64,000 nucleotides of DNA, from positions 6,298-70,297 of the forward strand of contig CAIKAD010000004.1 in NCBI GenBank assembly GCA_903825315.1, written 5' to 3'. Below the pieces are notes generated by a model, which made no database searches, had not been told where the DNA came from, and was given only the letters and a program-made list of their open reading frames with translations. Source of the DNA: an uncultured Candidatus Peregrinibacteria bacterium (GTDB lineage Bacteria > Patescibacteriota > Gracilibacteria > Peribacterales > Peribacteraceae). Each line of letters begins with the position of its first letter. Within the stretch, counting starts at the first letter, position 1. A program made the translations under genes and the position numbers. This document shows positions 34,871 to 37,127 of the stretch, piece after piece.

Positions 34871-36532
34871 ATGATGATGAATCCTCGCAAACCGGCTACT
34901 GAAGAGAAGCCCAAAGCACGTTTCATCATCGTTACCGGAGGGGTTTGTTCGTCGCTTGGGAAAGGCATTGCGGTTTCGTCCATCGGCGCCATTATGAAGG
35001 CGTGCGGATTCAAAGTATTCGTGCAGAAGCTTGATCCGTACCTCAACGTCGATCCCGGAACCATGAGCCCTTTCCAGCATGGCGAGGTCTACGTGACGGA
35101 CGACGGGGCGGAAACTGATCTCGATCTTGGTCACTACGAGAGGTTTATCGACGAACCGATGAGCAAGCTCTCCACGGTCACGACCGGACAGATCTACCAG
35201 TCGGTCCTCAACAAGGAGCGGCAGGGAGACTTTTTGGGCAAGACGATCCAGGTGGTGCCGCATATCACCAATGCCATTAAGGACCGGATGAAGAAAGCGG
35301 CGCGGGAGAGCGGCGCGGACATCATGTTGATTGAGATCGGCGGCACGGTGGGGGACATTGAGGGCGAGCCGTTCCTGGAAGCCGTACGCCAGATGCGTGC
35401 GGAAATGGGAGAGGGGAGGCTGTTCCACGTGCATCTCACGCTCCTTCCCTACCTGGAGGCGAGCAAGGAGCTCAAGACCAAGCCGACACAGCTCTCCGTG
35501 CGTGAGCTCCGACGGATCGGCTTGCAGCCGGATGTGATCCTGGCGCGTGCGGACAAGAAGATTCCCCTGGAACTCCTGGAAAAGATCAGTCACTTCTGCG
35601 GGGTGGAGCGTCGCGCCGTGATCCCCGCACAGACGGTGCAGTCCATCTATGACGTTCCGTTGAACTACCAGCAGTACGGCATGGCGCAAATAGTGGCGGA
35701 GAAGCTTCTACTGGGGGACGTGAAGCCGGACATGAAGGAGTGGGAGAAGGGCAAGAAACGTCATATTGAGGCGGAGAAAGAGATCCGTATTGCGCTCGTG
35801 GGGAAATACACGCACCTGGACGATGCCTATCTTTCCGTCATTGAATCCATCAAGACCGCCGCGGTATTCGCGGGCCGCAAGGCAGCCATTAGCTGGGTTG
35901 ATTCGGAAAAGCTGGAAGCGAATGACGAGGAAGTCTGGAAGAAGCTCAAGGAGTGTGCAGGCATTGTGGTTCCTGGCGGGTTCGGCAGCCGTGGCATTGA
36001 AGGGAAGATCCTTGCCGCAAAGTACGCGCGTGAGAACAAGGTTCCCTACCTGGGTTTGTGCCTTGGTTCGCAGATCATGGCGATAGAATTTGCCCGTGCG
36101 ATGCTTGACGATCCGCTTGTTACGAGTGAGGAGTTCGACGAGGAGGGGAAACTCAGCAAGGACAAGTACGTCGTGCACTTCCTTCCCGGTCAGTACAAGG
36201 AGCGGAGCAAGGGCGGTACGCTGCGTCTGGGCGCGTATCCCTGCAAATTGAAGAAGGGAACGAAGGCGGCAGCGGCGTATGGAAACGTAACGGAAATATC
36301 CGAACGCCACCGCCACCGCTACGAATTCAATAACGACTACCGTGAGCGGCTGGAAAAGGCAGGAATGGTCATCTCCGGCGATTCACCGAAGGGCGATTTG
36401 ATGGAGATTGTGGAGATCAAAGGCCATCCGTTCATGGTGGGGAGTCAGTTTCATCCGGAGTTCAAGAGTAGGCCGCATAAACCCCATCCGCTCTTTGCTG
36501 CTTTTTTGAAGGCGGCGGTGGGGAAGGAGTAA
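34871..36532 (+). CDS. pyrG: CTP synthase
   Basis: ORF 34733..36532 with the start moved to the ATG at 34871. [23 protein letters not shown]-loop-like N-terminus. GATase Cys in [15 protein letters not shown], and HRHRYEFN. Confidence 0.95.
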
Positions 36533-37127
36533 CAGAATAGAAGAATAACAGAGTAACAGGAACTCGCTCAGGGCGAAGGAACCCGTTATTCCGTTAGTCT
36601 GTTATTCCCGTTCCCGGCATGCAGTGATCAAGCCTGATAGTAACCGCTTTTCCTGCAGTACAAGATCCATGGCCTTGGCGATCCTCGCCTGCGGAACAAA
36701 TTTCAATGCGACGATGATCAGGAGAAAAGCTTCTTCTTCAGAACATTCGCCTCGCGAGATTGTATATTTCGCCGCCTTGTCCGGATAAGTGAAACGGCCG
36801 AATCCTTCTGCAAGGTTTGCCAGGATACTGGATGCTGCCTTCCGCATTTGTTTTGTGATACCGAACCGCTCTTCTGTGGGAAGAAGCTTCGTAATTTCGT
36901 AAATTTCCTGCAGGAGTTCGATGCCAACTTTCCAAACGAGGAGATCCGTAAAATGATTCATGCATTCATTGTCCCTTTTCTTTCTTTCTGGCAACTATCT
37001 TCGGTAACAGATCCTGAGAAGTGATGCGAATAGATGGCTTCCCGTAGAACAAAAATTAGTTCTATGATCCTATAGAACGTCCGGGATAGGTTCCTGTTAT
37101 TCCCTTACTCTGTTACTCTGTTACTCC
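36526..37127. mobile_element. four-helix-bundle gene cassette 2 with 11-bp perfect terminal inverted repeats, inserted between pyrG and pyrD
   Basis: Left end GGAGTAACAGA...AACAGGAAC (36526-36563). The right end (37089-37127) is its inverted copy and ends ...TCTGTTACTCC. The arms are 9-nt-periodic (TAACAGAGT units). A third, inverted block lies at 36577-36615. The pyrG TAA stop is inside the left terminus and the pyrD ATG is 2 nt past the right terminus. Confidence 0.55.
36602..36961 (-). CDS. four helix bundle protein (23S rRNA-intervening-sequence protein / Avd-like family)
   Basis: Start moved to the ATG at 36961 (MNHFTDLLVWKVGIELL...). LPTEERFGITKQMRKAASSILANLAEGFGR. The last codons (CRERE*) lie in the inverted repeat block. 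Confidence 0.9.
   Translation of the reverse strand: MNHFTDLLVWKVGIELLQEIYEITKLLPTEERFGITKQMRKAASSILANLAEGFGRFTYPDKAAKYTISRGECSEEEAFLLIIVALKFVPQARIAKAMDLVLQEKRLLSGLITACRERE

Follow-up and report, generated by a model that had tools for sequence, protein, structure and literature searches.

A four-helix-bundle gene enclosed by tandem-repeat arms between pyrG and pyrD of a Peribacteria genome, possibly a free-standing relative of 23S rRNA intervening sequences

In a 64,000-nt stretch of DNA from a member of the Peribacteraceae (the window), a 602-bp cassette is wedged at the junction of the pyrimidine genes pyrG and pyrD (36526-37127), and in it two inverted-repeat arms enclose a small gene that is antisense to both neighbours. 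The design recalls the 23S rRNA intervening sequences (IVS), which sit at the tip of helix 25 or 45 and are excised by RNase III without re-ligation. The locus thus raises the question of what such a unit is, how it came to lie between two protein-coding genes and what it may do there.

The features of the locus are collected in Table 1. An inverted-repeat search bore out the coordinates of the cassette and the perfect 11-nt termini described in an earlier note on this DNA, and the ORF list and the sequence confirmed that pyrG ends at a stop codon within the left arm and that only 2 nt separate the right arm from the pyrD ATG. The arms, of 38 nt each and 82% complementary, are separated by 526 nt and match perfectly over their outer 11 nt and inner 9 nt, and the arm score lies 17 standard deviations above that of shuffled flanks. 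Exact matches to the terminus GGAGTAACAGA occur in the window only at 36526 (plus strand) and at 37117-37127 (minus strand). When up to one mismatch was allowed, five matches were seen against 0.54 expected by chance, four of them in the cassette. Of the TAACAG and CTGTTA hexamers counted over the whole 64 kb, one half likewise fall in it. The arms had been described as built from 9-nt units; Tandem Repeats Finder (TRF) instead gave a period of 8 nt (TAACAGAA, 3.8 copies; CTGTTACT, 4.1 copies). The left arm is purine-rich on the plus strand, and all three plus frames are closed in it by stop codons. Since an identical protein was read on six contigs, and the same cassette was present at both of the loci fetched (ENA and Logan assemblies), the cassette is not an assembly artefact.

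Table 1. Features of the pyrG/pyrD cassette and its neighbours, in window coordinates
Feature	Position	Strand	Description	Basis
pyrG (CTP synthase)	~34871-36532	+	553 aa	gene call; Pfam CTP_synth_N and GATase
Cassette terminus sequences			GGAGTAACAGA / TCTGTTACTCC	
Left arm	36526..36563		3' arm in the sense of the four-helix-bundle gene; ~4 tandem 8-nt units of GGAGTAAC/AGAATAAC type	inverted repeat; TRF x3.8
pyrG stop codon TAA	36530..36532	+	within left arm, supplied by its first unit	ORF list
Third block	36577..36615			repeat search and local fold; insertion in orthologue alignment
Four-helix-bundle gene	36602..36961	-	119 aa and stop; intact	PF05635 / TIGR02436
Leader, 5' arm to start codon	36962..37089	-	128 nt	orthologue alignment
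Terminator-like hairpin	37059..37078	-	GTTCTAT-N6-ATAGAAC, then T-run 37050-37058 on minus strand	
Right arm	37090..37127		5' arm in the sense of the four-helix-bundle gene; ~4 tandem 8-nt units, CTGTTACT on plus strand	inverted repeat; TRF x4.1
Extended -10-like motif TGTTACTCT (TGnTAnnnT)	37111..37119	+	built from right-arm units, 10 nt before pyrD ATG	
pyrD (dihydroorotate dehydrogenase)	37130..38071	+	start 2 nt past right arm	ORF list and Pfam
pyrK	start 38075		3' of pyrD; pyrD/pyrK gap of 3 nt	

The antisense 119-aa four-helix-bundle ORF was confirmed by matches to PF05635 (Pfam; E 4.6e-27) and TIGR02436 (NCBIfam; E 6.5e-25), and its PDB match was 2GSC (E 1.7e-14). The AF2 model of the protein (pLDDT 97.7) has a TM of 0.92 to 2GSC and of ~0.8 to the Avd structures 4DWL and 8UB7. 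The description of the protein as Avd-like is therefore valid for the four-helix-bundle fold, which it shares with the Avd accessory protein of diversity-generating retroelements (DGR), but not beyond it, as sequence identity is ~11% and no reverse-transcriptase Pfam match was found among the genes called within ~10 kb either side. Avd is a pentamer that binds nucleic acid. The closest solved homologues, 2GSC and 2RLD, comprise five chains each and are likewise pentamers, as described for the 2GSC protein (PMC4990558). By homology to the pentameric XCC0516 and to Avd, the four-helix-bundle protein is probably a nucleic-acid-binding ring. Judged from the orthologue comparison, its gene is intact and under purifying selection (dN/dS of 0.08-0.15). 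PADLOC defence models gave no match, and viral contigs gave one weak match only.

Relatives differ in what lies between pyrG and pyrD. The cassette occupies this junction in the window and in L003, L006, L088 and L115, and is decayed in L089; ORF-less hairpins are found there in L095, L105, L106 and L122, and the junctions of L119, L111 and L116/117 are cassette-free. Such cassette-free junctions measure 52 to ~170 nt. That of L111 was considered as a truly empty site with overlapping stop and start codons, and rejected as such because the conserved PyrG end lies ~90 nt before pyrD. One relative carries an extra cassette at the pyrD/pyrK junction, and arrays of the same tandem-heptamer kind occur at the pyrD stop and pyrK start in many relatives. 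The suspicion that the element is insertional was upheld by the cassette-free junctions and by the extra cassette at pyrD/pyrK. Comparison of these junctions shows that the cassette was gained at pyrG/pyrD by an ancestor of one Peribacteria subclade and has persisted there.

The window itself contains a second cassette (25687-26424), whose protein passes the PF22296 bAvd model, together with five or more hairpins built alike from tandem units but without an ORF; the earlier note had mentioned neither. At least five different unit families occur within the 64 kb, and no unit of the two cassettes recurs in any of these ORF-less hairpins. The second cassette has a strong terminator-like hairpin after its 5' arm, analogous to that at 37059..37078, and a scan of it for sigma-70 promoters found none.

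Homologous genes in other genomes were surveyed for the same architecture. Of the 79 non-redundant homologues, drawn from many phyla, 60 are flanked by arms, which were called where the inverted repeat beat all shuffles with z>4. Among the homologous genes 65% attained an inverted-repeat score of 14 or more, as opposed to 6% of 121 control genes from the neighbourhood (Mann-Whitney p 2e-24). Units repeat every 7 nt at 50 of the 60 loci and every 8 nt at seven, and the TRF copy number per arm clusters at 3-5. Arm sequences vary from cassette to cassette, with arm similarity following protein similarity; a locus had its own 3' arm as best partner among the 79 in 42 cases and within the top three in 58. 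Related cassettes were met in unrelated flanks, also across phyla, and at the 80 genome-scan loci no conserved rRNA motifs were found. These comparisons show gene and arms to behave as one heritable, transferable unit. The arms fit closely between their neighbours, beginning a median of 10 nt past the upstream stop and ending a median of 8 nt short of the downstream start. Both neighbours are co-oriented with the cassette gene at 47 loci and both are opposite at four. One cassette, around gene NPUN_RS33770 of Nostoc punctiforme pNPUN01, has heptamer arms of 63 nt. Stops in all three frames were found in 37% of 5' arms against 11% of shuffles; a role of the 5' arms in closing the three frames was nonetheless rejected, the effect being mostly a by-product of the 7-nt period (at least one stop, 88% versus 84%).

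The arms pair with each other in the minimum-free-energy folds of both strands, so that the ~38-bp stem suggested in the earlier note is predicted for the plus and the minus strand alike. The third block repeats the right arm in direct orientation (81%) and the left arm in inverted orientation. By local pairing with the left arm it can close a ~100-nt hairpin directly 3' of pyrG, for which the local fold reached -36.8 kcal/mol (z of -4.4 on the plus and -5.6 on the minus strand). The block had been noted before as a third inverted block overlapping the last ORF codons, and this holds, but it is specific to this genome and missing from the orthologous cassettes (L003, L006 and L004), for which reason it was rejected as a conserved alternative-pairing switch.

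On the gene's own strand, a leader of 128 nt is typical for this clade, whereas most other cassettes have a gap of 0-30 nt, and a promoter scan found no sigma-70-type promoter for the gene in the leader. The hairpin at 37059..37078, which with its T-run looks like a terminator, is shared by the window with L003, L006, L004 and L088, and has survived in L089 although the cassette there is decayed. Because such a hairpin follows the 5' arm in both cassettes of the window, the sense mRNA may not span both arms. Among the arm mismatches of the 60 loci, 32 would be G.U pairs in sense RNA, 57 in antisense RNA, and 104 were of other kinds. This wobble test thus offered no evidence of selection on sense-RNA pairing, G.U not being favoured in sense, and a DNA-level role fits equally well. 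The antisense excess of G.U is itself to be distrusted, as the tandem unit variants lie out of register.

The earlier note had taken co-transcription of pyrG and pyrD as its premise. This is doubtful: 37 of 54 relatives have a TANNNT hexamer that stops 6-9 nt short of the pyrD start, with a positional peak at 7-8 nt, while an SD-like motif precedes pyrD in only two of the 54. At cassette-bearing loci the hexamer is a right-arm unit, at distance 7 in L006, L088, L115 and L135, and in the window TGTTACTCT is probably the -10 element of a near-leaderless pyrD mRNA. If pyrD transcription began inside the right arm, the only plus-strand transcript spanning both arms would be pyrG read-through. Arm-borne -10 boxes were also considered as a general property of the cassettes and rejected, no TANNNT peak being present before the genes downstream of other cassettes; nor was there one before the four-helix-bundle genes themselves. 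The arm-borne -10 box at pyrD is a local case.

Among known systems, the resemblance to ORF-bearing 23S rRNA IVS that had been proposed is borne out by the stem, the ORF family and the tandem heptamers of Coxiella. The helix-45 IVS of Coxiella burnetii has a 28-bp terminal stem, which RNase III cuts mid-stem, three GACAGAT heptamers and an ORF of the PF05635 family that is decaying and apparently untranslated (PMC4990558). The rRNA IVS of Leptospira and Coxiella and the pyrG/pyrD cassette thus have in common an ORF of the PF05635 ('S23p') family, an ORF-enclosing stem of ~28-38 bp, a total size of ~430-600 nt and short tandem repeats in the arms, which are heptamers in Coxiella and most relatives and 8-mers in this cassette. 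Unlike them, the cassette stands outside rRNA, between protein-coding genes and antisense to both, and its ORF is intact and selected whereas that of Coxiella is decaying; RNase III excision has been shown for the rRNA elements, and for the cassette we only infer it.

Each REP sequence consists of one GC-rich palindrome, and a dedicated Y1 transposase (RAYT) recognises it. REP/REPIN and the cassettes are alike as abundant intergenic hairpin-forming repeats, and a RAYT-like gene is present at the L089 site, but the cassette arms are AT-rich tandem arrays of many unit families and no transposase is encoded. The Correia elements of Neisseria (CREE/NEMIS) are small and intergenic, with inverted-repeat ends and a hairpin in co-transcribed RNA that RNase III can cut, and outward promoters can arise at their ends (PMC2649163). 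The stem processing proposed for the cassette and its arm-borne pyrD -10 box parallel these properties. CREE are, however, ORF-less, with conserved non-tandem termini, TA duplications and one sequence family per genome, in contrast to the cargo gene, the tandem-array arms and the unit sequences varying between copies that distinguish the cassette. The TAACTGA repeats of Beggiatoaceae, the STRR of cyanobacteria and the heptanucleotide elements of Geobacter are likewise intergenic, as arrays of 2-6 heptamers abutting starts or overlapping stops (PMC4679880; PMC2700814), but the arrays described there are mostly direct, enclose no gene and are not linked to PF05635 genes. An integron attC site, a type III toxin-antitoxin system (with its tandem repeats, terminator and ORF) and a retron were also weighed as layouts and dropped, because the arms pair across the ORF, the units measure only 7-9 nt, and integrase, ToxN and reverse transcriptase are all missing.

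The explanation that we favour, and hold with about as much confidence as doubt, is that the cassette is a free-standing relative of the ORF-bearing 23S rRNA IVS, shaped by RNA processing and domestication. A transcript crossing both arms would form a ~38-bp duplex, the type of RNase III substrate found in the rRNA versions, and cleavage would cut the cassette RNA out of the host transcript; no RNase III gene (rnc) lies in the window. Excision would allow the element to be tolerated, with little harm, between or even inside essential transcription units. The cassettes of most relatives, which run in the same direction as their neighbours and leave no space for a promoter of their own, would be reliant on host transcription and processing. 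The copy in the window would represent a rarer antisense type that is partly domesticated: its left arm, in which pyrG finds its stop codon, would also form a hairpin at the 3' end of pyrG together with the third block, its right arm would give the -10 element of the pyrD mRNA, and the four-helix-bundle gene, with its long leader and terminator-like hairpin, presumably has its own promoter.

It is possible, if doubtful, that the arms act instead at the DNA level, as terminal inverted repeats, or as a hairpin, through which a transposable cassette is moved in trans (e.g. by a Y1/HUH enzyme) or by the four-helix-bundle protein, with RNA pairing incidental and the ORF-less hairpins non-autonomous (MITE/REPIN-like) derivatives. 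The cassette shares with IS elements and MITEs its terminal inverted repeats, its presence/absence polymorphism, here at two junctions, and its copies at unrelated sites, gene and arms having moved between phyla; yet its only ORF is that of PF05635, with no transposase in the cassette and no Y1-type match in the window, and no target-site duplication is present at the arms, where the flanks GGGGAA (left) and AGATGA (right) share no direct repeat. Y1-type transposase genes do adjoin the locus in L006 and L089, but the RAYT-like gene that stands in place of the cassette in L089, the closest relative, is flanked by its own, different GC-rich palindromes. The ORF-less hairpins of the window could be such derivatives, as could a hairpin of L115 that shares the GGAATATT unit family of the cassette in that genome; the many unit families of the window, none shared between its ORF-less hairpins and its cassettes, would on the other hand be hard to accommodate with one sequence-specific enzyme. 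The missing wobble signature for sense RNA also speaks for this reading.

Alternatively, the tandem units could be iterons for the pentameric protein, ~4-5 per arm and about one per subunit, with binding serving autoregulation or RNA/DNA packaging and arm complementarity arising from two opposed arrays. We regard this as decidedly improbable. The pentameric state of 2GSC, 2RLD and Avd, the nucleic-acid binding of Avd and the 3-5 TRF copies per arm are consistent with it, and arm sequence seems to be kept beyond neutral expectation, the right arm being ~92% identical, by eye from the alignment, between the window and L003, where synonymous sites are saturated. The arms also co-evolve with the protein, but inheritance of the cassette as one piece would produce this correlation just as well, and the ORF-less hairpins use other unit families with no cognate gene seen in the window. 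Finally, a host regulatory device of the pyr operon (attenuator, terminator or insulator) that evolved in place, with the ORF as a passenger, would suit the position between pyrG and pyrD, the strong local hairpin of left arm and third block after pyrG and the probable pyrD -10 box in the right arm, but is very improbable and appears largely refuted by the comparative data, as homologous genes at unrelated junctions of many phyla are enclosed in the same way, relatives do with cassette-free junctions, no U-tract follows the long stem, and an Rfam scan of 34000-40000 found no PyrR-binding RNA element as in a PyrR-type pyr attenuator and nothing at E<1 except a chance match to isrK.

Beyond the favoured reading of this cassette as a relative of the rRNA IVS, a wider and unlikely proposal would unite PF05635 cassettes and ORF-less tandem-heptamer hairpins in one large class of mobile elements, in which the pentameric protein would recognise arm arrays of 4-5 units and promote copying or maintenance of the cassette; the rRNA IVS would then be those members that inserted at rRNA helix tips, with the ORF-less hairpins as non-autonomous derivatives.

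How rRNA IVS arose and move, and what their conserved ORF does, has been asked since the early 1990s. Our survey suggests that the rRNA copies are a minority, and that the gene-in-stem unit resides at ordinary gene junctions of many phyla. Such cassettes outside rRNA appear to be a general architecture, of which an incomplete literature search found no earlier description; database curators may have noted it. The cassette appears to move as a unit, to leave decayed and ORF-less forms behind and to be open to co-option; in the window it contributes the stop of pyrG and probably a promoter element of pyrD. The cassette of NPUN_RS33770 would be tractable material for the questions of RNase III cleavage, binding and mobility. 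The question of the rRNA IVS may thereby be recast as one about the biology of a widespread cassette family.

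The segment between pyrG and pyrD is a real feature of the window, not an ordinary one, in which inverted-repeat arms enclose a four-helix-bundle gene. The arms described in the earlier note were confirmed as 38-nt repeats, 82% complementary and 526 nt apart, pairing perfectly over the outermost 11 nt and the innermost 9 and scoring 17 standard deviations above shuffled flanks. The 11-mer GGAGTAACAGA has exact matches in the 64-kb window at the two cassette termini only; with up to one mismatch it has five matches against 0.54 expected, four of them inside the cassette, which also holds half of the TAACAG hexamers of the window (four of eight) and half of its CTGTTA hexamers (again four of eight). 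The antisense ORF was found as described, as were the left-arm position of the pyrG stop codon and the 2-nt gap from the right arm to the pyrD ATG, while the proposed 9-nt repeat unit had to be corrected to 8 nt. The suggestion that the arms could pair was borne out by the predicted folds of both strands. One side of the cassette is occupied by the CTP synthase gene, the other by the gene for dihydroorotate dehydrogenase, and the electron-transfer subunit of that enzyme comes next. The same protein was found on six contigs, and both loci retrieved from independent assemblies have the same cassette.

Features of the two cassettes and of other elements in the window
Feature	Position	Strand	Details
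Left (3') arm	36526-36563		
Right (5') arm	37090-37127		
Cassette gene	36602-36961	-	119 aa; PF05635 E 4.6e-27, also TIGR02436
pyrG stop codon	36530-36532		
pyrD ATG	37130		
Third block	36577-36615		direct copy of right arm
Conserved hairpin, then T-run	37059-37078		just inside 5' arm
Right-arm hexamer region	37111-37119		reads TGTTACTCT
Second PF05635 gene	25903-26259	-	118 aa; PF05635 E 5.5e-37, also bAvd PF22296
Second cassette	25687-26424		
Second cassette, 5' arm	26383-26424		9-nt units AGAGGATGC
Second cassette, first 3' copy	25866-25915		9-nt units AGAGGATGC; overlaps stop codon
Second cassette, second 3' copy	25687-25737		9-nt units AGAGGATGC
Strong intrinsic terminator, second cassette	26386-26349	-	after H+-PPase stop and 5' arm
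ORF-less intergenic hairpins (at least five)	5332-5410, 11697-11813, 13291-13406, 14212-14318, 23865-23978		
Solo GAGGAAACC arrays	38901-38925, 29299-29337		no inverted partner nearby
ORF adjoining pyrG	32504-34681	-	725 aa; no Pfam match on record
Giant ORF	41448-63980	-	>7,510 aa, runs off window; 8,206 aa in contig gene call
Tandem repeats within giant ORF	51016-52239, 44427-44880		276 nt and 177 nt, respectively

Homologues of the protein carry the annotation 'four helix bundle protein'; the closest ones belong to Candidatus Peribacteria/Peregrinibacteria, to which group of Patescibacteria the window is accordingly assigned. Among solved structures the nearest is that of Xanthomonas XCC0516 (2GSC, E 1.7e-14), and an AlphaFold model of the window protein (pLDDT 97.7) gave a TM of 0.92 to 2GSC and 0.8 to BT_0352 (2RLD). 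Avd of the Bordetella phage retroelement also reached a TM of about 0.8 to the model, at 11% identity; a diversity-generating retroelement was ruled out because the genes called within ~10 kb either side had no reverse-transcriptase Pfam match. Among orthologues dN/dS was 0.08-0.15 where dS was computable, dS being saturated elsewhere, and by these low ratios the protein is functional.

The design extends well beyond the window. Searching one genome from each species with a homologue alignment gave 80 loci, which belong to Patescibacteria, Planctomycetota, Gamma- and Deltaproteobacteria, Acidobacteriota, Chloroflexota and Omnitrophota, plus a Chryseobacterium, and conserved 16S or 23S motifs were present in none of the 80. 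For every gene, 300 nt of upstream sequence was compared with 150 nt of downstream sequence, and the score was that of the best inverted repeat without gaps. Arms exceeded every shuffle at z>4 in 60 of the 79 non-redundant homologous genes, and a score of at least 14 was reached by 65% of the homologous genes against 6% of 121 other genes at the same loci (p 2e-24). The arms (median 27 nt, range 17-67) are formed by tandem-unit arrays with a period of 7 nt in 50 of the 60 loci and 8 nt in seven. In 54 of the 60 the 5' arm is rich in G and in purines, and since the two arms are inverted copies this bias applies to either strand.

The unit sequence varies between cassettes (GGAGTAAC, GTGAAGC, GGGATCA, AGCGACGG and others), yet every 5' arm is matched by its own 3' arm, which ranked first of 79 candidate partners in 42 loci and third or better in 58 (the median arm-pair score was 16.5 when both arms came from one locus and 8.0 when they came from different loci). 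The more similar the proteins, the more similar the arms: where protein identity exceeds 60%, 18% of pairs have cross-compatible arms, versus 0.5% where it is below 40%. Some pairs share a unit family and 66-69% protein identity, yet their flanks have no detectable similarity; among them are Smithellaceae and Pirellulales, Anaerolineae and Thermoflexia, and the window and L004, a relative whose cassette lies upstream of efp. On these data gene and arms form a single unit that moves.

For the pyrG|pyrD junction, PyrD was used to scan metagenomes, and 80 related loci with 56-81% identity were recovered. The same antisense cassette is present in the window, L003, L006, L088 and L115. In L089, the closest relative, it is decayed, the right arm and adjacent conserved hairpin being kept and a RAYT-like Y1 transposase gene (182 aa; L089:2192-3501) standing in place of the cassette ORF and left arm, flanked by its own palindromes (GTAGGGACGCCATG/CATGGCGTCCTTAC) and a long tandem array of ~36-nt units. 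Right-arm remnants only are left in L135 and L113, ORF-less hairpins of tandem units from other families are found in L095, L105, L106 and L122, GC-rich palindromes in L120, L130 and L131, and other genes in further gaps; L119, L111 and L116/117 have a spacer without any cassette, between 52 and about 170 nt long. The pyrD|pyrK junction, 3 nt long in the window, holds a second cassette in L006, L088, L096, L098, L104 and L135. Such presence and absence across the junctions favours insertion, as the earlier note had supposed, over a sequence common to all orthologous loci.

Several other features of these loci were observed. A separate IS200-like Y1 gene adjoins pyrG in L006, and L003 has a lysine-decarboxylase-family (LOG-like) gene where the window has the 725-aa ORF. 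At pyrD|pyrK within L090-L134, direct heptamer arrays reminiscent of the Beggiatoaceae TAACTGA repeats span the pyrD stop and reach the pyrK start (e.g. L123, L107, L130, L097, L106, L134), and a stop triplet is frequent in the heptamers (AGACGTA, CACTGAT, AACTTAG and others); L090, L101, L114, L115 and L120 have ORF-less hairpins there instead.

The ORF-less hairpins of the window itself have arms of tandem 7-9-nt units (families AATGACC, GGTTGTA/GGTAGTA and GAGGAAACC) around centres of 24-55 nt, and four of them, when folded, gave z of -3.7 to -5 against shuffles. The centres of the second and fourth listed are reverse complements with GTACATCCATACGAGGA in common, and these two are therefore dispersed copies of one family. 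No unit is common to these hairpins and either window cassette; in L115 a hairpin and a cassette 1.5 kb away have a common unit family. One solo GAGGAAACC array lies directly past the pyrK stop and the other within a UvrC-like ORF.

Across the family, cassettes fit closely between host genes. The 5' arm starts a median of 10 nt past the upstream stop codon, overlapping it in 10 cases, and the 3' arm ends a median of 8 nt ahead of the downstream start; in 47 loci the two neighbouring genes run in the direction of the cassette gene, and in four they both run against it. This tight spacing and co-orientation suggest that most cassettes have no promoter room and must be read from host transcripts. 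A 20-60-bp stem around the gene would then sit on a single RNA, a layout matching that of rRNA intervening sequences, which RNase III cleaves in mid-stem (PMC4990558). In the general set (L008-L087) downstream genes usually start 0-18 nt past the pyrimidine-rich 3' arm, usually with neither an SD-like nor a -10-like motif.

The window cassette belongs to the antisense minority, and here the right arm probably serves pyrD. A TANNNT hexamer ends 6-9 nt ahead of the pyrD start in 37 of 54 distinct relatives, with a peak at 7-8 nt, and an SD-like motif occurs in only two of the 54; such a pattern is typical of leaderless mRNAs, and the pyrD mRNA of the lineage looks leaderless. Where a cassette is present, one of the right-arm units provides this hexamer: L006, L088, L115 and L135 have TATTCT or TACTCT at distance 7, and in L003 and the window the hexamer lies at 9-10 nt. 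An arm-borne pyrD hexamer would explain why the pyrD-proximal arm is conserved (about 92% identical between the window and L003, counted by eye in alignment A1 of orthologous cassettes, with synonymous sites saturated) and persists as a remnant. Genes downstream of other cassettes showed no TANNNT peak, and the pyrD case is thus local. The left arm supplies the pyrG stop codon and, with the genome-specific third block, is predicted to form a hairpin of -36.8 kcal/mol directly 3' of pyrG.

For the window copy, we consider an RNase III mechanism to be about evenly balanced between true and false, because of its inner hairpin, the possible pyrD start inside the arm and a null wobble test. If the conserved hairpin, which has a clear intrinsic terminator as its equivalent in the second cassette, stops incoming transcription, the four-helix-bundle mRNA would start past it and lack the 5' arm. 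A pyrD start within the right arm would leave pyrG read-through as the only transcript carrying both arms. The wobble test on arm mismatches did not support the idea that pairing in the sense RNA is under selection. Mismatches in the arms of L008-L087 included 57 A:C (G.U in antisense RNA) and 32 G:T (G.U in sense RNA), an A:C excess that may be an artefact of unit register. The RNase III mechanism is more likely for the promoterless majority than for the window copy. Two rivals are live, namely that the arms act at the DNA level in mobility, and that they are iterons for a pentameric four-helix-bundle protein; both are compatible with each other and with the RNA model.

Every sequence-level feature of an ORF-bearing rRNA intervening sequence was found in the window cassette except the defining rRNA location. 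We call it a free-standing variant of that element, not an intervening sequence proper, because it lies outside rRNA and its excision is putative. Correia elements, with an RNase III hairpin and promoters at their ends, resemble it in proposed behaviour (PMC2649163), and TAACTGA, STRR and Geobacter heptamer arrays in building blocks. A search of the accessible literature turned up no account of non-rRNA PF05635 genes bracketed by tandem-heptamer stems, though curators may already know of them. Cultured examples include a Geminocystis plasmid copy with (AAAAGGG)n arms and, on pNPUN01 of Nostoc punctiforme PCC 73102, NPUN_RS33770 (L170:1401-1887), annotated 'four helix bundle protein' and wedged among co-oriented genes with 63-nt (AGGAGTC)n arms. 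The latter cassette offers a genetically tractable example of the family.
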